Below, in pieces: positions 3,699 through 19,366 of a stretch of 40,983 nt of DNA. Under the pieces are notes generated by a model. The model had not been told where the DNA came from and searched no databases. It saw nothing but the letters and a program-made list of their open reading frames with translations. Every line of letters starts with the position of its first letter. The stretch's first letter is position 1. The stretch comes from a bacterium (GTDB lineage: Bacteria > Cyanobacteriota > Vampirovibrionia > Obscuribacterales > JAKAZS01). The translations under genes were made by a program, and so were the position numbers. Where the stretch lies: contig JAJYFO010000002.1 in the NCBI GenBank assembly GCA_021785395.1, positions 1 through 40,983 on the forward strand, given 5' to 3'.

Positions 3699-3790
3699 AG
3701 TAATAACTCCTGTTGTATATAATGAAACTTTTATTGGTGGGTATGTATCATAATATTATGATGGTTGGTGAATTTGTTTTGGCACGCTAA

Positions 3791-3820
3791 TTGACTTGAA
3801 AATTATTTTTAACTTTTAAT
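3791..3820 (+). promoter_or_regulatory. Candidate sigma-70-type promoter upstream of the ECF sigma operon
   Basis: TTGACT (3791-3796), 18-nt spacer, TTTAAT (3815-3820), ~125 nt upstream of ATG 3944. Such matches are frequent in AT-rich DNA. Confidence 0.25.
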
Positions 3821-3943
3821 GCTTTAAAATCGAAAAATTAGGCTAAAATAATAAATTAACGTTCCTTGATTTTATAATACTTTTTAAGTAATCGATTTTA
3901 AGTTCATTTTTATTTTAATTATTGCAGATTGTAAAGAGGTATC

Positions 3944-4584: not shown

Positions 4585-5490
4585 ATGCAAAATGTTAACT
4601 GTCTAAGTATTGAAAATCTTTCGGCGTTGTATGACAACCAATTGGAGAATTATGACCGTAATTTGGCTTATGGGCATTTGGGTCAATGTAAAGATTGTTC
4701 TTACCAGTTTGACCTGATAAGTAAGACCAGCGCTAATTTACGTAAGGGTTTTGAGCAGATGGCCAAGTCTTATAATGTCGATTTGGTCGGTAGGTTGACC
4801 TGCCAGAATGATGTCTGTAGTGCCATTGTCGTTGATTTGTCGGCCTTTGTCGACAATGAATTGACCCAGGCTGCCAGTGAAGGTATTAAATCGCACTTAA
4901 AGCATTGCAAGCCTTGTTTAGCTAAATTTAATGGTCTAAGAAATCTCAACCAAACCCTCCAAAATGCCTTTAAATTGCCAAATTCGCATAACATTGATTT
5001 GGTGGCAGCGATTAAAGATAAAATTAACAACGATTGCAAACAAATGGCTAGCGATTTTTCAGCCTTTCTAGATTCTTCTTTGAATACTACAAGGCATTAC
5101 GAAATTACCAAGCATTTAATGGCTTGTTCGAATTGTCAGAACCAGATTGATAAACTTATGGACGTAAGCAACCTTATAAAAACCGAATACCGAGCTCCGA
5201 TGGACGTTAATTTATTGCCGGGTATTCAAAATAAATTGAAATTGAAAGTTGTTAGCAATAAACCGGTTTCTAACGTTAAAAATTTAAAACTCCCCAAATT
5301 TGCTATAGCCAGTGTAGCCAGTTTTGTTGTATTATTGTTAGCCGGTACTGTATTGTTGAATTTTCCCAACGCAAGTATTGAAGACAAACCTTTGACTGCA
5401 GAATCTTATATACTCGACAATTCTTTTCTTGAAAACTCTGATTATGATTCCCACAAAAATGCCGAGGTGGTTTTATATGAACAACCTTAA
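4585..5490 (+). CDS. Membrane-anchored anti-sigma factor with three tandem zf-HC2 (ZAS) units and one C-terminal TM helix
   Basis: H-x3-C-x2-C occurs at H31/C35/C38, H104/C108/C111 and H177/C181/C184. Each is preceded by a Cys 25-26 residues upstream (C6, C78, C151). TM helix FAIASVASFVVLLLAGTVLL. The gene lies directly after the ECF sigma gene. Confidence 0.8.
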   Translation: MQNVNCLSIENLSALYDNQLENYDRNLAYGHLGQCKDCSYQFDLISKTSANLRKGFEQMAKSYNVDLVGRLTCQNDVCSAIVVDLSAFVDNELTQAASEGIKSHLKHCKPCLAKFNGLRNLNQTLQNAFKLPNSHNIDLVAAIKDKINNDCKQMASDFSAFLDSSLNTTRHYEITKHLMACSNCQNQIDKLMDVSNLIKTEYRAPMDVNLLPGIQNKLKLKVVSNKPVSNVKNLKLPKFAIASVASFVVLLLAGTVLLNFPNASIEDKPLTAESYILDNSFLENSDYDSHKNAEVVLYEQP

Positions 5491-5974
5491 ATTACTCGTA
5501 ACTTTGAGCTTGCTTATAACTTTGAATCAGGGCGTTTGGGCCTATGACGGTCAAAAACCGATGATTGACTGGAATAAGCTTAACTTAACCAAAGAACAGA
5601 GTCAGGCCATAGATGATTTAAATGCTAAGTGGCTTAAAGATTACGGTGAGATTCAGCCTTCTATAGTTGAAGATCAGCGCAAATTGACCCAGTTGTTGGG
5701 TCCTCATAATAGTGACCCTGTAGAAATAATGTCAGTCCAGCAGTCTTTAGCCCATAAGCGGGAAAAACTAAAAAATATTGCTATGGTGAATTATCTAAAA
5801 AAGCGCCAGGTTTTAAATGAAACGCAGCGTCATGAATTAGACATAATGGTCGGTGAAGTCATAGCTCAAAGGCAGAATAATAATTCGGCTAATGTAAATT
5901 TAGTTGGCAACGACCGCTTTCAAAATTTAATTCAAAGAGTTCGTAATTTTGTTCCGGCTAATCCTCAACGCTAG
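5477..5974 (+). CDS. Periplasmic Spy/CpxP/ZraP-family (LTxxQ) protein
   Basis: Signal peptide MNNLKLLVTLSLLITLNQGVWA. LTKEQ and a second LNETQ motif in a helical, basic protein. ATG 5477 has GAGGTGG 6 nt upstream and overlaps the anti-sigma stop by 14 nt. The longer ORF start at 5429 is rejected. Confidence 0.65.
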   Translation: MNNLKLLVTLSLLITLNQGVWAYDGQKPMIDWNKLNLTKEQSQAIDDLNAKWLKDYGEIQPSIVEDQRKLTQLLGPHNSDPVEIMSVQQSLAHKREKLKNIAMVNYLKKRQVLNETQRHELDIMVGEVIAQRQNNNSANVNLVGNDRFQNLIQRVRNFVPANPQR

Positions 5975-5986
5975 TTTTTTTCACAG

Positions 5987-7723
5987 ATGGAATTAATATT
6001 AACCGATTTGATTTGGCAGGCCTGTTTAATTCTTAAAGGCCAAAATGATTTAATTGTTGATATTGATAAAGATTCTATCGTCATAGAAAAGCCAAAGAAC
6101 CTAAGTTTTGGCGATTTCTCTTGTGGTTTGGCTTTTAAATTGAGTGTTAAAAACAAAAAGTCACCTCTGGATATAGCCAATATTATTCAGCAAGTTTTAG
6201 TTGCTAAAATTACCGAATATCAAAATTACATCAGCCAAATTAGTGTAAGTAAGCCTGGATACATTAATTTTACGGTTAGTCAAGGCTATTTATTATCAAT
6301 ACTGGATGAAATTTTAAATGACGGCGATAATTTTGGTCGGTCTAAATATAAAGATAAATTCTTGATAGAATACGTTTCGGCTAATCCAACCGGACCAATG
6401 CATATTGGGCACGCCAGAAACGCTGTTTTTGGTAGCTGTTTGTCTAATCTATTAAAATTTGCCGGATTCTACGTTGAAGAAGAATTCTATATCAATGATA
6501 CTGGTCAACAAATTATTAAACTTGGAAAAAGCCTTCTTGTCTGTTATCGGCGTGAATGCGGTAATTTAGATTATAATTATGATGACGACAGCTATCCAGA
6601 AAGTTTATTGATAGACACTGTAAGACAAATTTTGCATGACCATAAAAATAGTCTAAGTAATTTGACTGATGATCAATTGAGCGTTAGTTTAGCTAAACTG
6701 TTTATGGAACTAACTATAAATAGTCAAAAAGAAGAGCTAGAGCAGTTGAATATAAATTTTAATACCTGGTTTAGCGAAAAAACTCTCCACGACAATGGGT
6801 CAATTGATGAAATGCTCGATTTACTAAAGGCTAACAATATGACGTATGAGTTAGATGGTGCCTTATGGTTAAAATCAAAGGATTTGGGTGATGAGAGGGA
6901 CAGGGTTTTAATTAAAAATAATGGTCATTTGACTTATTTAGCTGTTGATGCAGCTTACCATTTAAACAAATATAAACGTGGGTTTGATAAAATCATAAAT
7001 ATCTGGGGGGCTGACCACCACGGCCAAATTCCCAGTTTGGCAGCTGTTTTAAAAGCGCTAGATTGCAATGTTGATTCATTTAAAGTTATTTTGACGCAAA
7101 TGGTAAATCTAACTAAAAATGGCGAGATACTGCGCATGTCCAAACGTATGGGTACTGTCGTTACCTTGAAAGAGGTTCTTGATGAAGTTGGTAGTGATGC
7201 CATGCGATATTTTTTAATAGAGTCAAGTCCCAGTAATTCAATTAATTTTGACCTTGAATTGGCCAAACAGGCTAGCAGTGAAAATCCCATATTCTATATA
7301 CAATATGCCCACGCAAGATCCTCTTCGATTATGCGTAAAGCCATGAGTTTGAGCCCAAGTTATAATTTGTTAAATTCAAGTGTTAAAGAGATTTATGCAA
7401 TATGCAAATCTAATAAAGATATTATCGAAAATGTTTTTGAAAACGATAACGAAAAATATAATTTACAGAAAAAAATAATCTTAGAGCTAGCTTATTTTAA
7501 GACGCTTGTGCAAGAAAGTGCCAATAGTTATTTACCCCATCGAATTGCGCATTTCGCGTATGAATTAGCTTATGACTTTCAGAAATTTTATGAAAATTCC
7601 AAAGTTTTATATTCCGATAATATCAATTTAAGTTTGGCCAGAATATTATTTGTTTTAGCCATTAGAACAGTTATAGGTAATTGCTTAAAAATACTCGGGA
7701 TTTCAGCACCAGAAAAAATGTAA
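5987..7723 (+). CDS. argS: Arginine--tRNA ligase
   Basis: SANPTGPMHIGHARN (HIGH) and MSKRMG (KMSKS-like). Typical N-terminal Arg_tRNA_synt_N region and DALR-type C-terminus. Confidence 0.95.
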   Translation: MELILTDLIWQACLILKGQNDLIVDIDKDSIVIEKPKNLSFGDFSCGLAFKLSVKNKKSPLDIANIIQQVLVAKITEYQNYISQISVSKPGYINFTVSQGYLLSILDEILNDGDNFGRSKYKDKFLIEYVSANPTGPMHIGHARNAVFGSCLSNLLKFAGFYVEEEFYINDTGQQIIKLGKSLLVCYRRECGNLDYNYDDDSYPESLLIDTVRQILHDHKNSLSNLTDDQLSVSLAKLFMELTINSQKEELEQLNINFNTWFSEKTLHDNGSIDEMLDLLKANNMTYELDGALWLKSKDLGDERDRVLIKNNGHLTYLAVDAAYHLNKYKRGFDKIINIWGADHHGQIPSLAAVLKALDCNVDSFKVILTQMVNLTKNGEILRMSKRMGTVVTLKEVLDEVGSDAMRYFLIESSPSNSINFDLELAKQASSENPIFYIQYAHARSSSIMRKAMSLSPSYNLLNSSVKEIYAICKSNKDIIENVFENDNEKYNLQKKIILELAYFKTLVQESANSYLPHRIAHFAYELAYDFQKFYENSKVLYSDNINLSLARILFVLAIRTVIGNCLKILGISAPEKM

Positions 7724-7816: not shown

Positions 7817-8425
7817 ATGAATTATAATTGTAATTTTGAGTTATCCCAGGAAGAATGCCTAGTATTGTTGACCAGTTTGCGACTGCTCGATAAACTGGTT
7901 ATGGGGATGACGATTCACAATGAAAACCAGGATGAGTTAATTCAAAACCTGATTGACAAAGTATCCCAATCGCTTCCACAAAAGATGACTTCGGTTTCTA
8001 AATCTTTGGCTAATGCTATCTTAGATTCACTTTTAACTATAATTTACGAAGAATACATAAAAAACACCAATCCGGGTGAAAAACCCAGTAGTTTAATGTT
8101 TACCCACGATGAAGAAGATTTTCCGCCCATGTATTCAACTGAATCCACTCTTCCTCAATTGCAATCAGCCTTGGTTAACCATCACCAGGTTAAAGTGGAG
8201 TATTACAGCTTAGCTAAAGAATCGGTAGATTACCTCGATTTAAACCCTTTAACCATACAAGCTGACAATAATTTGTGGAAAATGCTGGCTTTTTGCCATC
8301 AAAAAGAAGAAATACTGAATTTTAGGATAGACCGTATTAAAAGTGTTGAAACTAGTGAACAGAAATTTAATATTCCAATTAATTTTAATATAAATAGCGT
8401 TAACGAATATTCTTTTTATAAATAG
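7817..8425 (+). CDS. WYL-domain protein lacking an N-terminal wHTH
   Basis: The C-terminal half, VKVEYYSLAKESVDYLDLNPLTIQADNNLWKMLAFCHQKEEILNFRIDRIKSVE, matches the WYL-domain pattern (x.Y.s....r.v.P..l....WYl.a.c......FrldRI). No DNA-binding HTH is evident in aa 1-110. Confidence 0.6.
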   Translation: MNYNCNFELSQEECLVLLTSLRLLDKLVMGMTIHNENQDELIQNLIDKVSQSLPQKMTSVSKSLANAILDSLLTIIYEEYIKNTNPGEKPSSLMFTHDEEDFPPMYSTESTLPQLQSALVNHHQVKVEYYSLAKESVDYLDLNPLTIQADNNLWKMLAFCHQKEEILNFRIDRIKSVETSEQKFNIPINFNINSVNEYSFYK

Positions 8426-10263: not shown

Positions 10264-12039
10264 TTGATACAGTGCCATATTTGCCAGGTTATGAACGAAG
10301 ACAATGCCAGATTCTGTGCTGAATGTGGTCAAAGATTTGTTAAGGCGACTAATTCTAATATAGAGGCCATTCAGCCTGCTAACTTGACTAATTCAAACCA
10401 GATTAAGACAAATATACTTTGGAACGATGAAGAGATCGAAAATGATGACGATTCTAAAGTTAGTAAGACAGAATTTAGCAATCGGCCGACACTTAAAAGT
10501 AGCAATTCGGCGCAAAATAGTTTAGGATCTAGTAATCCAAATAACCAATCAACGACTAATAAGGAAAATATGACCGATTTTAATAATTCTAACTCCGATA
10601 ATCCGAAATCTTCAAAAATTCGTTTGCACTCTCCGCTTTTAGGCTCAGCCGTCGATAACGATGAGTCTAATGAAGACCAGACCATGTATCCGGTTAATAA
10701 TTCCAAAAATAGAGGTAAGGGAAAATTGCATTCGCCACTTTTAGGCGGCAGTGAAGACGATGACGATTATAATGATGGCGATTATAAAGGTAGTAAACCC
10801 AATATTAACGGTAAAGGTAAATTACATTCGCCCTTATTAGGAGGATCTGGCGATGACGATTTTGATAATTATGGTGACCGTAATTTTAAGGGTAATAAAC
10901 CTGGTACCAGCGGTAAAAGCAAATTACATTCGCCCTTGTTAGGAGGATCTGGCGATGACGATTTTGACAATTATAGTGACCGTAATTCTAAGGGTAATAA
11001 ACCTGGAACCAGCGGTAAAGGTAAATTGCATTCGCCCTTGTTAGGTGGATCTGACGATGACGATTTTGACGATTATAATGACCGCAATTTTAAGGGTAAT
11101 AAACCTGGTGGCATTGGTAAGGGAAAATTACACTCGCCATTACTAGGTGGAGCTGACGATGATTTCGATAATTATGATAACCGCAATTTTAAGGGTAATA
11201 AACCTGGTGGCAGTGGAAAGGGTAAATTGCATTCGCCATTACTAGGTGGAGCTGACGATGATTATTTTGGTAATTATGATGATCGTAATTTTAAGGGTAA
11301 TAAATCTGGCGGCAGCGGCAAGGGGAAATTACATTCACCTTTATTGGGTGATAGTCTGGATAATTTCGATGATGACGACAACTACAGTTATGAAGAAATT
11401 AACGACCCGAATGTGCTCAGATCACCACTTTTATTGTCAAAAGTTCATACCAATGAACCTAAGCAAACAAATTCTAAATTGAATAATATAAATCCGGCCA
11501 AAATTTCCGATATCCAAAATGATGACACAGGCGTTGATTTAAAAAGTAACAGACCGCTTGAAAGTATAGATTCAGTTGATGAATCGCCTAACATTATAAG
11601 TAAATCTAGGACAAATTATGATGAAATTGATATGCCCGGCTTAAGCCAGTCTAAACCTAATACTAAACTAATTAAACCGGACAATCCTAAACCAATCAGT
11701 TCCAATCTATCCCCAAAATTGACCAGGCAAAACCTTTCCCAAATCACTAATGAAGTTGAAGCGGAAATCGATAATTCCAAAAATCGTAGTCCCGTTAAAG
11801 CTAAAAATATGGCCAAAGAAACCGGAAGTTTCCCTAATAGTCTATCTGGAGCAAGGGTTAAAATTAACCCTGCGGCTATTGTAATGATTTCTATAGCATT
11901 ATTCGTTAAAATAGGTTATATTGTTTTAATATTTACACAAAAGCCCCAGGCAATTAATTTAACCTTTTTCGTAAATGAAATTTCGCAAATTTTATTGTTT
12001 GTAGGTTGTTTAATAGCCGTAAATTCAATAAAAAATTAA
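10264..12039 (+). CDS. Zinc-ribbon / tandem-repeat / C-terminal two-TM membrane protein, function unknown
   Basis: N-terminal CHIC..x11..CAEC zinc ribbon. Eight LHSPLLG repeats. C-terminal hydrophobic helices AAIVMISIALFVKIGYIVLIF and ISQILLFVGCLIAV. TTG start with GAGGA 6 nt upstream. Confidence 0.7.
   Translation: MIQCHICQVMNEDNARFCAECGQRFVKATNSNIEAIQPANLTNSNQIKTNILWNDEEIENDDDSKVSKTEFSNRPTLKSSNSAQNSLGSSNPNNQSTTNKENMTDFNNSNSDNPKSSKIRLHSPLLGSAVDNDESNEDQTMYPVNNSKNRGKGKLHSPLLGGSEDDDDYNDGDYKGSKPNINGKGKLHSPLLGGSGDDDFDNYGDRNFKGNKPGTSGKSKLHSPLLGGSGDDDFDNYSDRNSKGNKPGTSGKGKLHSPLLGGSDDDDFDDYNDRNFKGNKPGGIGKGKLHSPLLGGADDDFDNYDNRNFKGNKPGGSGKGKLHSPLLGGADDDYFGNYDDRNFKGNKSGGSGKGKLHSPLLGDSLDNFDDDDNYSYEEINDPNVLRSPLLLSKVHTNEPKQTNSKLNNINPAKISDIQNDDTGVDLKSNRPLESIDSVDESPNIISKSRTNYDEIDMPGLSQSKPNTKLIKPDNPKPISSNLSPKLTRQNLSQITNEVEAEIDNSKNRSPVKAKNMAKETGSFPNSLSGARVKINPAAIVMISIALFVKIGYIVLIFTQKPQAINLTFFVNEISQILLFVGCLIAVNSIKN
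10621..11436 (+). repeat. In-frame tandem coding repeat, unit 96-102 bp (32-34 aa)
   Basis: AAATTRCAYTCGCC (KLHSP) recurs at 10723, 10819, 10921, 11023, 11125, 11224 and 11326, giving spacings of 96, 102, 102, 102, 99 and 102 bp. Diverged copies lie at 10624 and 11416. Confidence 0.9.
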
Positions 12040-12124
12040 AGTTTAATTTTTTTTTATTTTTATTGCTGGCGTAAAAATTAGGCTAAACCTGCGCAAGGAT
12101 TATAAAAACCTTAAAAATGGCTTA

Positions 12125-12154
12125 TTTGACAAATTTAAACAGTTGTCAAATAAT
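12125..12154 (+). promoter_or_regulatory. Candidate sigma-70 promoter overlapped by an 8-bp inverted repeat (possible operator)
   Basis: TTGACA (12126-12131), 17 nt, AATAAT (12149-12154), ~80 nt upstream of ATG 12236. TTTGACAA (12125-12132) and TTGTCAAA (12143-12150) form a perfect inverted repeat with a 10-nt spacer. Confidence 0.4.
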
Positions 12155-12235
12155 AGTATTTGTGAATTTTGTTATTTCCGGCTATTCAATTATAATTAAT
12201 AGATGCTAAATTGGTGAACTAATACTCTCAGACTA

Positions 12236-13582
12236 ATGCCAAAATCATTTTCAACCTTTATATCGATATCTCTCATAAGTTTAATCGTCTTTGAAGAAAC
12301 TACAGCGCTTAATGCATACGCTTCGTTAATGCCTTCGGCTAAACACGTTTCATTTGATACACCATCTTACGAAAAGCTGGACCAAGGTTCTGGACCTCAG
12401 ACTAACGATGGTAATAATAAAAGTGATGAACCTGTCTCTACTAATAATAATGAAAACTCGTCTGATTCAGTAGATGCAAACCAGGCTATCGGTACAAAAT
12501 TTTCTAAGGTTAATGATAATTCGAATCACGAAAATACTGACAGTATAAGCGTAAGCACGCAGCCAGCTAAAACAGCGCCTAATGATTCTATACTAAATAC
12601 AGATATAGTTAATCAGCTCAAACCTCTTAAGTTAACCGACGACGTTAACAGTGGTACCGTTGTTGACACTGATAGTAATGTTGGTGAAAGTCAAAACGGT
12701 GTTTTGAAGTCAACCGTTTGTGCGACTGGATTTGTGCCTAGAGATCCACTGGCGACTGCATCAACCCCAAGTATTCCAACTAGTATTTTGGGACATAAGA
12801 AAAAACCAAAACAGACAATTATAGAACAGGCCAAACAAGTTACTGCTATGCCGCTACCTTTAATAGAAACGAGTGAAGAAACCGACAAAAAAATTGATAC
12901 TATAATTGACTCGGAACGTCAAGAGTTGTCACAGTTATGGGAAGCAACCTTAACACGGTCGCCTGACATTCAGTTTGTCATTCAAAAACTTATGCCCAGT
13001 AATAATAATGGTACCCACGCTACTACTATTTTAATGCGCATGTTAAGTACGGCTATGTTTGGAGCCATGGGCGCTGTAACAATGATGTCGCCAAGTATTG
13101 GTACCTACGCTGCCAGCAGTATGGGTGGCAGTATGGTTATGAATTTGTTGCAGTTACAAGAAGGTAAAAACGCTAAAAAAGCTAAACTCAGCCAGACCGA
13201 GGCTATTATGCTTTACAACATGATAAGAGCCAATGCTGACAGGCTGGTAGATTGTTTCCGTAATTATAAAAAGAATCTGGTTAGCCTGGATAGGGCTAAT
13301 GCCGACCTAAATGATTTGCAGGCGATGGTGTCGGATACGCGCTCTAACCAGGACAGTTCTAAGCAAGTTGATAATGAGTATACTTTGCGCAAGGCTAAAC
13401 GTGACATTGATTCTTTGTCCGAAGAAGTTCGAAGATACCGTCAAAGCCTTGTTGATCTTGCCGGAACAGAAGCGGTGTGTAAGTTAGACAAGCAAATTAA
13501 CGATGAGCAATTAGCTCTCAAAGATCCCGTTGCTAATACTAAAGATAACGTGAAAACAGCTCAAGCCAGTTCTGCTTTATAG
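12236..13582 (+). CDS. Secreted or membrane-associated protein of unknown function: signal peptide, low-complexity region, Met/Gly-rich hydrophobic segment, C-terminal coiled coil
   Basis: Hydrophobic N-terminus FISISLISLIVF..ALNAYA. Segment ILMRMLSTAMFGAMGAVTMMSPSIGTYAASSMGGSMVM. Heptad-like C-terminus. Stop lies 2 nt before sppA. Confidence 0.6.
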   Translation: MPKSFSTFISISLISLIVFEETTALNAYASLMPSAKHVSFDTPSYEKLDQGSGPQTNDGNNKSDEPVSTNNNENSSDSVDANQAIGTKFSKVNDNSNHENTDSISVSTQPAKTAPNDSILNTDIVNQLKPLKLTDDVNSGTVVDTDSNVGESQNGVLKSTVCATGFVPRDPLATASTPSIPTSILGHKKKPKQTIIEQAKQVTAMPLPLIETSEETDKKIDTIIDSERQELSQLWEATLTRSPDIQFVIQKLMPSNNNGTHATTILMRMLSTAMFGAMGAVTMMSPSIGTYAASSMGGSMVMNLLQLQEGKNAKKAKLSQTEAIMLYNMIRANADRLVDCFRNYKKNLVSLDRANADLNDLQAMVSDTRSNQDSSKQVDNEYTLRKAKRDIDSLSEEVRRYRQSLVDLAGTEAVCKLDKQINDEQLALKDPVANTKDNVKTAQASSAL

Positions 13583-15372: not shown

Positions 15373-18123
15373 TTAAATATTTTCAAGATTTGAAAAATGT
15401 AATTTATTACGTCCTCGTCTGGAAATATTGGCTTTAAGCCAATCATATCGGCTAGTATCATTGGAAAAAATAATTATTTGGTTGTAGTTTGTGATATTCC
15501 TGGCAAGAAATTCAAAATATTTAAGCATTGATTCGTCATCACAGTTGTAAAATGGATCAATAATTACCATGGGAATCCTTTGGTTATTGGTAATAAGCTT
15601 GAATAAACTTAGCCTAATTAGTAGTTCTATAAAATCTATTTTATTAATTAAAATATTTTTATGCGCTATGTCATTAAGATTTATTGTGGTGTCAGGTTTG
15701 GTTGTAACGAAAATACTGAAATCGGCATCAATAAATATATTAGATATGCCAAAGTCTTGTTCAAACGTTGTATTGCGTTCAAAAATTAACTCTAATTCGC
15801 GATTAATTGAATTGACCCAATATTTTAAATCTGGTTTAGATACTTCTTTTATTTTATTAGCAGCAATATAGATTGAATAATCGAAAGTTATGAATGAAAT
15901 TAACTTATTGGTCAAAAAATTAAGCTCATGTTGATTGTTCAAAAACTTTTCGTCAATTTCTTTTCGATTACTATTAATCAGGTTAGCTGTATTTGTAAAT
16001 TTTTGTAATAGCTCTTGTTTGTTTAAGCCAGGCAACAATAACTTATCAGCTTTGTCATTGATCTGGGTAATTTTATCTTCTATTTTGTTAATCGCAGCAA
16101 TTGTGTGGTCGATTACTGAATCTATGTCGTCAATTTGTGTAACTTGAATACTTATATCTTCAGATTCAATAATTTCGTTCCATTTATGAATCGTTGAAAG
16201 TCTTGATTTGTAGATTTCATAAGATTCTTCGAAGGTATTTAAATTTAAAATATTAAACTGAGAAAAAATCTGGGCGATTTTTTGATTTGTGGTATTAAGC
16301 GAATCTATAAGATTTTGACGTCTATTTTGACCAGCATCAATACTTTCTTTAGAATCGTTAAATATATCGCGACTTGATTTAAAAACATTGAGTTCAGAAC
16401 ATAGTTTTTCCAAAAAATCATAAGTTAATTCATTGTATTCAACCGAATTTTTATTGAGTATAGTAGCAATTTTGTCAATTATATTTTTTATTTCAACTTG
16501 TTTTGTATGAATCATTGGACCAATAACGCTTATATTGGTTTTACTAGTTTTAATGTTGTTTAACGTTGTAGTAAGCTTTTCTTGACTGGCATTAATTATT
16601 GAAATTTTATTCTTGATAATAGCTTTGTTATTTTGAAGTATATTTAATTCAGAATTGATGTCTGAAACATTTTGGGATGATGATTTGTTTTTGTTTTTTA
16701 GTACAACTAGTATTCCTGTTATTATTGCAAAAGTAAAACCGACTGCCAACAATAAAAGATAAATTCCTTGCAATGCTTGATGATTAAGTAAAAGTTGGTA
16801 CAATGAAGAACCAATTAAGCCAAGTGAAATTAAACTAGATGTAATAATTATGGGTAGATAAAATTTAGATATAGGACTAACTTTAACTTTATCTAATTCT
16901 TTATTTAACTGAATTTCTTGTTGATCCAAAATTGTTAATTCGTTTTGAGCTGCTTTTAAAAGGGCTTCATTAGTTTTAATGCTTATTTTGGTATCATTAA
17001 TTACGGCATCATTAATTTTAAGGTACGTTGCACTAACGTTTGGAGCTTTTGGATTGTTTTGCTTTTGTAAGTCATTTAATTCATTGTATAATTTTTTTAA
17101 ATTTGTTAATCCGTTATTGATTTCTAATATATCAGTATCAGTGATAGAACTGTATTTTGTATATTTTGACTGAAGTTCGTTTATGTTTTTATCAAATTCG
17201 TTTTTGGTTAAAATTAATTCAGTTTCTAATTTGTTAAAATCGTTAATTGAATTGTTACGCTCTATGATTAATTTTTCAGCTTCAGCCTCAATTATTTTTA
17301 AGATATTATTGTCAACAATAATATCTGCCCAATTAAATTTATGTTGTTTAACTTCATTTTGAATAATTTTAAGTTTTTTTAGTAAATCATTTAAATTATT
17401 AAGTTTGTTTTGATAAACAAAAATATTTTGCTGTTCATCAATAGTTTTAAACTTATCTAGATCTAGATTAATATTTTCTAATTCAATGATTAAGGATGAA
17501 TTATCATTTCTTTTACGGTCAAGAGTTTTTTGTACTTCATAGCATTTAGCTATTTTTGTTTTATGGTCGTTAATAAGGTTCTTTATATCTTTTTCAAAAT
17601 ATAAATCTGTCGAAGAAATTAATTCTAATGCTTTATGCGATTGAATAAATATATTATTTAAAATACCTTTTATTTTTTCGCTTAGACCTGTTACTTGTTC
17701 TTTTTGGTCTAAATAAGATAGGCTATACAAAAATGATAAATCAATTATTTCACTATCAATTCCTGTAATTACTTTATTAAGTAGATTGCTGTTATTTGCA
17801 AATAAATTTTTGGCATTTTCGTTATCAAAAGGTGGTTCTAATACTTTTATTTTAGAATTATGTAAATCCTTGATAATTTTTAAATGTTTTTCATGTAAAT
17901 TAATAATGAGAGCTATTTCGCCCAAATTATTATTTTGAGGCTTTTTTATAAAATTATCGGTGTCTGATTTGTTTTCGTACAAAACCAAATAAACAGATTT
18001 GGCTAGTTTATCTTTACTTGCCTCAGAATCGACTATAATGATGTTAATTTTATCTTCTAGAAAACATAATTTTTTATCATTAAAATTGCCGTATTGCTTA
18101 AAAATTACTTCTTCAATCCACAT
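15373..18123 (-). CDS. SbcC/Rad50/YhaN-like long coiled-coil protein with degenerate ATPase head motifs and a central two-TM hairpin
   Basis: N-terminal head MWIEEVIFKQYGNFNDKKLCF..INIIIVDSEASKDKL. C-terminal head IPMVIIDPFYNCDDE..IIIFSND. Long heptad-rich arms. Hydrophobic helices at aa ~420-444 and ~452-475. ATG 18123 has AAGAGG upstream and overlaps the upstream gene by 11 nt. Confidence 0.6.
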   Translation of the reverse strand: MWIEEVIFKQYGNFNDKKLCFLEDKINIIIVDSEASKDKLAKSVYLVLYENKSDTDNFIKKPQNNNLGEIALIINLHEKHLKIIKDLHNSKIKVLEPPFDNENAKNLFANNSNLLNKVITGIDSEIIDLSFLYSLSYLDQKEQVTGLSEKIKGILNNIFIQSHKALELISSTDLYFEKDIKNLINDHKTKIAKCYEVQKTLDRKRNDNSSLIIELENINLDLDKFKTIDEQQNIFVYQNKLNNLNDLLKKLKIIQNEVKQHKFNWADIIVDNNILKIIEAEAEKLIIERNNSINDFNKLETELILTKNEFDKNINELQSKYTKYSSITDTDILEINNGLTNLKKLYNELNDLQKQNNPKAPNVSATYLKINDAVINDTKISIKTNEALLKAAQNELTILDQQEIQLNKELDKVKVSPISKFYLPIIITSSLISLGLIGSSLYQLLLNHQALQGIYLLLLAVGFTFAIITGILVVLKNKNKSSSQNVSDINSELNILQNNKAIIKNKISIINASQEKLTTTLNNIKTSKTNISVIGPMIHTKQVEIKNIIDKIATILNKNSVEYNELTYDFLEKLCSELNVFKSSRDIFNDSKESIDAGQNRRQNLIDSLNTTNQKIAQIFSQFNILNLNTFEESYEIYKSRLSTIHKWNEIIESEDISIQVTQIDDIDSVIDHTIAAINKIEDKITQINDKADKLLLPGLNKQELLQKFTNTANLINSNRKEIDEKFLNNQHELNFLTNKLISFITFDYSIYIAANKIKEVSKPDLKYWVNSINRELELIFERNTTFEQDFGISNIFIDADFSIFVTTKPDTTINLNDIAHKNILINKIDFIELLIRLSLFKLITNNQRIPMVIIDPFYNCDDESMLKYFEFLARNITNYNQIIIFSNDTSRYDWLKANISRRGRNKLHFSNLENI

Positions 18124-19366
18124 TATAACCTCTTAGCATTTTATTATTTAAAGCATCAAGACCATAAAATAAGGCTTTATCTATAATTTTAGACGTATCT
18201 ATAGTTTTGTGTTGTTTATCTAATATACTTTGGATATCCGGGTCTTCAGGTATTAATCTTGAGATATTTTCGTTGGCATATTCTTTTTTGTAATTTTTAA
18301 TTTCTTCGATGTATTTCAACTGGATACTGTCAGGTTTAAATTGAACAGCTAAATAATCGGGTCTAGCTTCATTAATAATTTCATAGTAATAAAAATCATT
18401 TAAGAAGTTAATTATTGGCTTAAAATAGTCATTTTCATCAATACTATAATTACCAAAAAGTCTTAATATAATCAAATCACTATTTTTAACGGCTTCTACT
18501 TCATGACATAAAGCTTCTATTTCATTAACTAAATTTTCGCTACTTAAACTGCCAACGTTAATAGTTAAATTTATAATTTTGCGCCATGGGTCATATACTT
18601 TTTGTTGATTAAAATTGTAATTACCAGGACTTCCTGACAATTTTACTATGCTTACATTAGATATTTCATCAATGGCTTTTGAAGTTATGTAGGTATTGGC
18701 AGTGCTTAAAATATGGGTATTATTCTCTTTCGTGTAATTGTTTTCTACATAACTCGAAGTTGCAATAAAATCGACGTTTTTTTCTATAAATTGGTCTATA
18801 TTACAAGTATAAGTAAAATGGTTGTCAAAAATAAAATTATTTGAATAATAGCGTCCGTATGGTATTGACAATAAAAGAATATTGAGTCCTTCGTCAATTT
18901 TTAAATTTGGCTTTGGCTCGAAATTATAGTTATAATTGGCTCCATGGATAAATATATTTTTATTAATGGCAAAACTTTGGTACTCATTACTACTAAAAAT
19001 ATGGACATTATCGGACCAAGTCTTTAGGTTAAGAGCTTTTAATAGATTATTGTCATAGGCTAGTTTGAAACTATTATTATTACTGGATATTGGTGCTATA
19101 TAAAAATTTATGTCGTTGTTTTGGGCTAGTACTTCAACAAATTTTTGTTGCGTCTGGGTTCGAACGTTACAGGTGTCAAATAGTCCACCTGGGATTAATA
19201 CGTGTTTAATATTATAGTTGTTAAGGTTGGCTAGCAAATTAAGTATATTGTCGATTAACTCATTGTTTAACGTGGTAATCTGTTGACTGTTAAGATTAAA
19301 GTCACTAAATAACTCCGGACAATCAATTTGCGGTGAGGATAATAATAAAAATTCAAAATTTTCCAT
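18113..19366 (-). CDS. SbcD/Mre11/YhaO-like calcineurin-fold protein with substituted metal-binding motifs (predicted catalytically inactive)
   Basis: Relic motifs: FLLLSSPQID (for hhhhsDxHhg), VLIPGGLFD (for GDLFD), FYIAPISSNNN (for GNHD), NVHIFSS. Translationally coupled to the SbcC-like gene. Confidence 0.5.
   Translation of the reverse strand: MENFEFLLLSSPQIDCPELFSDFNLNSQQITTLNNELIDNILNLLANLNNYNIKHVLIPGGLFDTCNVRTQTQQKFVEVLAQNNDINFYIAPISSNNNSFKLAYDNNLLKALNLKTWSDNVHIFSSNEYQSFAINKNIFIHGANYNYNFEPKPNLKIDEGLNILLLSIPYGRYYSNNFIFDNHFTYTCNIDQFIEKNVDFIATSSYVENNYTKENNTHILSTANTYITSKAIDEISNVSIVKLSGSPGNYNFNQQKVYDPWRKIINLTINVGSLSSENLVNEIEALCHEVEAVKNSDLIILRLFGNYSIDENDYFKPIINFLNDFYYYEIINEARPDYLAVQFKPDSIQLKYIEEIKNYKKEYANENISRLIPEDPDIQSILDKQHKTIDTSKIIDKALFYGLDALNNKMLRGYNVD

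Follow-up and report, generated by a model that had tools for sequence, protein, structure and literature searches.

The locus and its three putative zinc-binding units

The window considered here, namely the whole stretch of 40,983 nucleotides that was analysed (positions 1 to 40,983 of contig JAJYFO010000002.1, assembly GCA_021785395.1, forward strand), originates from a bacterium of the order Obscuribacterales (Cyanobacteriota, Vampirovibrionia) and contains a gene for an anti-sigma factor. The cytoplasmic part of this protein consists of three complete, anciently duplicated class-I domains of the zinc-binding anti-sigma (ZAS) type arranged head to tail. The gene starts 9 nt past the stop codon of a gene in the same orientation that encodes a sigma factor of the extracytoplasmic function (ECF) type, the product of which scores 113 bits against the NCBIfam model sigma70-ECF (cut-off 42.9) and is presumed to be the cognate partner of the anti-sigma factor. 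No second sigma or anti-sigma gene, and no paralogue of this sigma factor, is present within the 41-kb window. A third gene begins before the anti-sigma gene has ended, the two sharing 14 nt. The initial annotation had located the repeated region at 4600-5238, which corresponds to amino acids (aa) 6-218 of the 301-aa product (Table 1).

Table 1. Coordinates of the sigma/anti-sigma locus and of the parts of the anti-sigma protein within the window
Feature	Position	Strand	Basis or characteristics
ECF (group IV) sigma factor gene, 210 aa	3944..4576	+	Sigma70_r2 E 3e-18, Sigma70_r4_2 E 8e-16
Anti-sigma factor open reading frame (ORF), 301 aa + stop	4585..5490	+	ORF list, zf-HC2 match; homologous clusters about 295-317 aa long
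Unit 1, class-I ZAS domain, aa 1-73	4585..4803	+	Putative zinc ligands C6, H31, C35, C38
Unit 2, ZAS domain, aa 74-146	4804..5022	+	Putative zinc ligands C78, H104, C108, C111
Unit 3, ZAS domain, aa 147-219	5023..5241	+	Putative zinc ligands C151, H177, C181, C184
Lys-rich juxtamembrane linker, aa 220-236	5242..5292	+	Sequence LKVVSNKPVSNVKNLKLPKF; low predicted local distance difference test (pLDDT) score
Single transmembrane helix, aa 237-258	5293..5358	+	AlphaFold2 helix and hydropathy
Short extracytoplasmic tail, aa 259-301, about 41 aa	5359..5487	+	Conserved motif
Third operon gene, 165 aa, putatively periplasmic, Spy/CpxP/ZraP-like	5477..5974	+	LTXXQ-type motifs

The zinc-ligand motif H/C-x23-26-H-x3-C-x2-C occurs in three copies in the anti-sigma protein. 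Its HxxxCxxC portions begin at aa 31, 104 and 177, and thus display the exact 73-aa period that had been proposed for the entire repeat, whereas the first ligands depart from it: the upstream Cys residues are located at positions 6, 78 and 151, so that 24 residues separate Cys from His in unit 1 (C-x24-H) and 25 do so in units 2 and 3 (C-x25-H), the first Cys of unit 1 being one residue nearer its His. The helix-1 strings (LSALYDNQLE, LSAFVDNELT and FSAFLDSSLN) and the helix-4 strings (YNVDLVGRL, HNIDLVAAI and MDVNLLPGI) are all present as originally quoted.

The whole protein matches the Pfam family zf-HC2 (PF13490) with 56.6 bits (cut-off 22.2), and zf-HC2 is also the best family for each unit scanned alone (13.6, 32.4 and 19.1 bits for units 1, 2 and 3, respectively). 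Three independent matches to this family had been anticipated; they were obtained as best matches for all three units, but the cut-off was passed alone by unit 2 only. Three passing zf-HC2 stretches are found in the orthologous protein P0003. The NCBIfam RsrA model TIGR03988 similarly matches in three stretches, one per unit, among which that of unit 2 is the best. Assignment as an RsrA equivalog was rejected, since the score of 65.9 bits (cut-off 62.5) is the sum of three partial matches and the best stretch covers only model positions 2-40 of 77.

Profiles of the individual units, built from 28 orthologues, align with one another over 67-70 columns in profile-profile comparison, with 99.3-99.4% probability and E-values of 1e-20 to 1e-21. 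An alignment over about 70 residues implies that the likeness spans whole domains and extends beyond the Cys/His string, which refutes the concern that only one unit might align outside HxxxCxxC. The in-register identity between units is 16-25% at the protein level and 35-42% at the DNA level, and no 219-bp tandem repeat was detected; the triplication is therefore ancient and not an artefact of assembly, the other circumstance under which the initial annotation would have been withdrawn. Taken together, the motifs, the profile homology and the conservation among orthologues bear out the proposed architecture, in which three complete ZAS-type domains follow one another in a single anti-sigma factor.

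Structural prediction with AlphaFold2 yielded a mean pLDDT of 75 and a predicted template modelling score (pTM) of 0.29 for the full protein (22-sequence alignment), and a pLDDT of 88.4 and a pTM of 0.39 for aa 1-225 (99 sequences). Each unit is modelled as three helices with pLDDT > 90, followed by a less confident fourth helix that in unit 1 lies around aa 64-71. The pTM values of 0.29-0.39 support no confident packing between units, which would thus resemble independent beads on a string. The junction between units 1 and 2 is modelled as a loop, and one continuous helix (aa 139-155) spans the next junction, from helix 4 of unit 2 into the stretch of unit 3 that bears C151. In Foldseek searches against the PDB, the 17-18 best matches were all class-I anti-sigma domains, with TMt up to 0.70, and the top matches comprised RslA (3HUG), RsiW (5WUQ), ChrR (2Q1Z/2Z2S), RskA (4NQW), DdvA (8RLZ) and MucA; the weak E-values of these matches (>= 0.5) are attributable to the shortness of the helical domains (60-70 residues). 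In addition, the family profile matches residues 7-72 of RsiW via unit 1 (E 1e-4), RsrA, and DdvA via unit 3.

Two features of the fold recur in every unit. Of 99 homologues, 98, 99 and 98 retain the helix-1 Asp of the LSAxxD motif (D17, D90 and D163, respectively); D17 stands opposite RsiW D16 in the profile alignment, and D90 and D163 correspond to D17 in register. Helix 4 carries a P/x-D-L-W motif in all three units, its Trp being retained as W/W/W in 81 of the 99 homologues. The clade of the window protein alone (with P0002 and P0004) has replaced this Trp in all units (V/V/L, V/L/L and L/Y/L), a loss that could be explained by AT-biased composition; the changes in the sigma factor that are specific to this clade are all conservative. 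The concerted loss was considered as a sign of a shared partner surface and was given no weight, as it is confined to a single lineage.

Downstream of the units, the most hydrophobic 19-residue segment starts at aa 240 (Kyte-Doolittle 2.5) and coincides with the AlphaFold2 helix 237-258. This helix is preceded by a Lys-rich segment, and by the positive-inside rule the protein is predicted to adopt an N-in topology with its tail outside. The single transmembrane helix and short outer tail of about 40 aa that had been proposed are thus recovered, as helix 237-258 and a tail of about 41 aa. Such a single-pass N-in arrangement with a cytoplasmic anti-sigma part, one helix and a Lys-rich lead-in is that of the RseA/RsiW type. 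The tail contains the conserved motif (S/T)AExYL(I/L)xS..L.EP....AE.V.YE, in which E273, Y275, E294 and Y298 are invariant among 28 orthologues, and it is presumed to serve as a sensing or site-1-cleavage segment. The tails of P0024 and P0027, inspected as unaligned sequences, look comparable to that of the window protein.

Conservation of the protein and its operon

To identify orthologues, one genome of each species was scanned with a degenerate pattern; about 65 genomes gave a full-length match, and almost all of these are labelled as Obscuribacterales, Melainabacteria or Cyanobacteria metagenome-assembled genomes. An intact ORF with three motifs is present in 53 of the 56 loci that hold the complete gene, contrary to the supposition that homologues might uniformly carry one unit; the exceptions are L016 and L056, in which the ORF is frameshifted, and L057, in which the unit-1 ligands are lost. 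In the latter locus (6016-6909), the Cys/His ligands of unit 1 are gone and units 2 and 3 are intact, indicating that the putative zinc site of unit 1 is dispensable in at least one lineage. In the protein database, the family comprises 94 clusters (E <= 1e-20), the full-length members of which measure about 290-340 aa and bear generic names, such as "zf-HC2 domain-containing protein", "anti-sigma factor", "anti-sigma factor RsiW" and "anti-sigma-YlaC factor YlaD". The family is order-wide and not peculiar to the window locus, and the three-unit layout beside a single sigma gene is conserved throughout the order Obscuribacterales.

The units are not conserved to the same degree. In the 28-sequence alignment, none of the eight ligands of units 2 and 3 varies, and conservation of the four in unit 1 is at least 90%. 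Between orthologues, pairwise identity averages 0.34 in unit 1, 0.585 in unit 2 and 0.55 in unit 3, compared with 0.30 for the linker, 0.365 for the transmembrane helix and 0.49 for the tail; unit 1 is thus the fastest-evolving and unit 2 the best-conserved of the three. The spacing between units 1 and 2 ranges from 70 to 85 across loci, and that between units 2 and 3 is 73 aa in all but one locus (75 there). Furthermore, certain residues are invariant in one unit only across the 28 orthologues, namely E99-G100 in unit 2 and R170-H171 and T175 in unit 3.

A single sigma gene is located just upstream of the anti-sigma gene in 63 of the 65 loci L004-L068 (tblastn), the other two being without upstream sequence. 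These orthologous sigma factors, one per locus, are 63-85% identical to that of the window. Covariation between sigma and anti-sigma sequences (mutual information, 54 pairs), in which the top 40 column pairs involved mainly units 3 and 2, was discarded, because MetK sequences taken from these loci as a control were biased in the same way and the signal is hence phylogenetic. With regard to promoters, one subclade (e.g., L033, L039 and L026) displays an ECF-like GGAACA-N17-GCGTCA element at about -55 from the sigma start, and a TGnTAnnAT-like extended -10 box was seen by eye, uncounted, in the upstream sequences of many orthologues.

A tblastn search recovered the downstream gene at 61 of 68 family loci (L001-L068), and in six of the seven misses the locus is truncated or lacks sequence past the anti-sigma gene. 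Its product in the window has a signal-peptide-like N-terminus, LTKEQ at aa 37 and LNETQ at aa 113, and matches known families weakly (LTXXQ at 16.3 bits against a cut-off of 24.3, E 0.016; ZraP at E 0.008). Among 25 orthologues of this gene, PF13801 (Metal_resist) is matched in 15 and PF07813 (LTXXQ) in eight, and the best matches of the family profile are Spy (3oeo, E 0.009) and ZraP (3lay). In the Cpx and Zra systems, proteins of the LTXXQ family act as modulators of membrane sensors. This conserved third gene, encoding a putative periplasmic LTXXQ/PF13801 protein, belongs to the system, and the locus most likely represents a three-gene stress module composed of an ECF sigma factor, a membrane-anchored anti-sigma factor and a putative periplasmic Spy/CpxP/ZraP-like protein. 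With its signal-peptide-like N-terminus and two LTXXQ-type motifs, the downstream product is a candidate counterpart of CpxP, Spy and ZraP; it would differ from them in that its membrane partner, presumed from gene linkage, would be the anti-sigma tail instead of a histidine kinase. No protease gene is linked to the module in the window.

The same gene order has been described for group ECF281, in which, according to a classification study, the ECF sigma gene is followed by a zinc-finger anti-sigma gene at +1 and a gene for a PF13801 heavy-metal resistance protein at +2, the group being associated with heavy-metal stress (Casas-Pastor et al. 2021, PMC7826278). In layout, the two systems share the identical three-gene order and Pfam families, and they differ in that repeated anti-sigma domains are unmentioned in the main text of that study.

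Among characterised anti-sigma factors, RsiW of Bacillus subtilis (partner of SigW; PDB 5WUQ) shares with the window protein the CHCC motif, the four-helix domain, the single transmembrane helix, the helix-1 Asp and the position of its gene after that of the sigma factor, and is among its best structural matches (TMt 0.64-0.68). In contrast to the three domains and tail of about 41 aa of the window protein, RsiW has one domain and a larger extracytoplasmic part. RsrA, RslA and ChrR likewise possess the H/C-x23-26-H-x3-C-x2-C motif and fold, with RslA and ChrR among the top Foldseek matches; however, each of them has a single domain, and RsrA is a soluble actinobacterial protein, unlike the membrane-anchored window protein of 301 aa. 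With the tandem triplication of its whole sigma-binding domain, the protein departs from all characterised anti-sigma factors of the class-I ZAS type, and the full-text literature accessible to the search, including ECF/anti-sigma classification studies and the RsiW structure paper, yielded no account of anti-sigma or ZAS domains repeated in tandem within a protein.

Regarding the wider surroundings, metK lies upstream of the module, and argS and a WYL-domain gene lie downstream; the same neighbours occur in L001-L003, the one orthologous contig group inspected. The gene for the WYL-domain protein is located at 7817-8425, after argS, and is also present in the distant orthologous contig L001. 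Elsewhere in the window, two regions (15373-19366 on the minus strand and 10264-13582 on the plus strand) contain large ORFs of 916, 417, 591 and 448 aa, for which no Pfam family was matched at E <= 1e-3 to 1e-4. GC content reaches its minimum for the window between 16 and 20 kb (0.284 versus about 0.35).

Multi-unit anti-sigma proteins in other lineages

A search of 1.84 billion representative proteins with the three-unit profile produced 1376 matches at E <= 1e-3. Among the best 150 of these 1376 matches, two motifs were counted in 66 proteins, three in 61, four in seven and five in one, with periods mostly of 66-80 aa; because ranking by this profile favours multi-unit proteins, these counts demonstrate the existence of such proteins and not their frequency. 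Pfam scans of eight proteins from other families revealed 3-4 separate zf-HC2 stretches in seven of them. The multi-unit anti-sigma factors that could be placed belong to Melainabacteria, a cyanobacterium (Laspinema) and Poribacteria. Orthology of individual units across families was also explored and rejected as a line of evidence, since nearly every foreign unit scored best against the hidden Markov model of unit 1, which is probably the profile of lowest specificity; unit 3 of the window family is followed by no foreign units other than unit 3 of P0024, P0026 and P0028.

Six other multi-unit proteins were inspected in their genomic context, and each is encoded after exactly one ECF sigma gene. 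In four of them (with three, three, four and five units) a PF13801/LTXXQ gene comes next. Next to the three-unit protein of Poribacteria type comes a gene that is MucB/RseB-like (L089, 4475-5575, weak Pfam match) and not of the LTXXQ kind, and the 660-aa protein of Laspinema has no obvious third gene. The units of the Poribacteria proteins are nearly identical to one another and 67 aa long; there are two of them in L069 and L072 versus three in L089/P0032, despite sigma factors that are 91-96% identical, which indicates that the number of units changes on short timescales.

Anti-sigma factors with a single unit also occur in related organisms. In L082, from Melainabacteria outside Obscuribacterales, a one-unit anti-sigma factor accompanies a sigma factor that is 48-63% identical to those of the three-unit systems. 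The Gastranaerophilales-type loci L076 (1820-2386) and L083 (747-1313) encode 188-aa anti-sigma factors with one ZAS unit and a second helix-1-like motif (LSDLSAYIDNEL and LDLSAYIDNEL, respectively) that is devoid of H-x3-C-x2-C and may represent a zinc-free second anti-sigma domain. A different architecture is found in P0098 (716 aa, from a JGI metagenome), which contains a Pkinase domain at aa 229-476 and four zf-HC2 stretches; ahead of the Ser/Thr kinase domain lie three ZAS-like motifs that recur every 55 aa, and one more lies behind it.

Possible modes of action and their significance

A 1:3 anti-sigma:sigma stoichiometry, the capture of further sigma factors and a graded or redox-tuned release had been raised as possibilities in the initial annotation. 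The preferred reading is that more than one unit, and possibly all three, binds the adjacent sigma factor. It is held tentatively, at somewhat less than an even chance, and is favoured because the clamping of ECF sigma factors is the only known role of the fold. In the crystal structure of SigW/RsiW, Asp16 in helix 1 of RsiW forms the central contact to basic residues of sigma4, and helix 3, the linker and helix 4 occupy hydrophobic grooves of sigma4 and sigma2 (PMC5358783). Judging from its sequence, each domain of the window protein appears to keep the corresponding sigma-binding features, including the helix-1 Asp, a zinc-clamped three-helix bundle and the P-D-L-W helix 4, the element in contact with sigma2 in solved complexes.

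If several units do bind, the tight adjacency or overlap of the sigma and anti-sigma genes would probably lead to similar amounts of the two proteins, and a multivalent inhibitor present in such amounts would provide excess binding capacity, with tight silencing and a titration threshold; the destruction of each inhibitor molecule would then set more than one sigma molecule free. A periplasmic trigger is probable, as the tail is better conserved than either the transmembrane helix or unit 1 and the gene is linked to an LTXXQ gene. By analogy with CpxP/CpxA and ZraP/ZraS, a periplasmic signal could be sensed through the tail and the LTXXQ partner, and release would most likely follow the membrane route of RsiW and RseA, in which site-1 and intramembrane site-2 cleavage precede cytoplasmic degradation by ClpXP. 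The zinc sites would be mainly structural, as in RsiW.

Several observations weigh against multiple binding. The units are only 16-25% identical and each has its own invariant residues, a hint that their roles are specialised and not equivalent. Evolution is much faster in unit 1 than in the other two (0.34 versus 0.55-0.585), and unit 1 has lost its ligands in L057. According to the structural model, two sigma factors side by side may not fit on the rigid helix of fixed length between units 2 and 3. The one-unit anti-sigma factor that accompanies a related sigma factor in L082 implies that extra units are needless for inhibition as such. Moreover, no ECF-type autoregulated promoter was found upstream of the window sigma gene (3699-3943), where only a TATAAT box is present at 3873-3878.

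A possible, if rather unlikely, alternative is that one unit operates as a conventional 1:1 sigma clamp and the other two are regulatory, in which case the extra units could be sensors of zinc, redox state or thiophilic metals, docking sites for a protease or adaptor, or an intramolecular lid that tunes affinity. The unit-specific invariant residues and the unequal conservation of the units (0.34, 0.585 and 0.55) are in line with such a division of labour, and so is the related sigma factor served by one unit in L082. The C151 segment prolongs helix 4 of unit 2 without a break and at an invariant spacing, suggesting mechanical coupling between units 2 and 3. A sensory role also accords with an operon context tied to heavy-metal stress in group ECF281 and with the surroundings of the unit 2 zinc site, which resemble those of redox-sensing RsrA (C-x-P-C-L-x-K-F) and give the best TIGR03988 stretch; of the residues credited in PMC5358783 with a part in the redox sensitivity of RsrA (E39, E40, L45 and E46), however, unit 2 seems by eye to keep only the Leu that comes after its last Cys. 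Retention in all units of the RsiW-contact Asp and the helix-4 motif would be needless for a pure sensor, and sigma binding is the only established function of the fold. Membrane-bound ZAS factors such as RsiW are, in addition, described as not redox-regulated (PMC5358783).

It is less probable still that the units hold different partners, namely the adjacent sigma factor together with ECF sigma factors encoded elsewhere or another regulator, so that the protein would act as a hub co-releasing several regulons. The units are mutually divergent yet each is well conserved across orthologues, as such a hub would predict, and specificity for the cognate ECF group is general among class-I anti-sigma domains, a matter of general knowledge that is also discussed in PMC7406223. 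In opposition to this, a single sigma gene is present at every inspected locus, and the near-identical units of the Poribacteria proteins, two or three in number, fit better with the tuning of copy number to one partner. The proposal that the repeat is an assembly duplication, a chance recurrence of Cys/His motifs or a decaying functionless relic, to which the sub-threshold Pfam scores of units 1 and 3 scanned alone might seem to lend colour, deserves almost no credence in view of the full-length homology between units (E ~1e-21), the lack of a DNA-level repeat, the three zf-HC2 stretches of P0003 and an architecture shared, with invariant ligands, by ~58 independently assembled genomes and 94 protein clusters.

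At a broader level, proteins with 2-5 such domains beside one ECF sigma gene might constitute an unrecognised class, in which one chain holds several sigma molecules and the copy number of the domain sets capacity, threshold and burst; this generalisation is speculative, and its truth is considered doubtful rather than probable. ECF sigma/anti-sigma pairs are usually handled as 1:1 switches in textbooks and synthetic-biology toolkits. If several sigma factors are indeed held per chain, this 1:1 paradigm would be broken, and if each domain binds a sigma factor, stoichiometry would become an evolvable parameter that tunes threshold, leakiness and output burst. If, on the other hand, the extra domains do not bind sigma, they would represent a new regulatory use of the anti-sigma fold. 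In either case, the present analysis annotates an order-wide conserved, uncharacterised stress module of the little-studied non-photosynthetic Melainabacteria.

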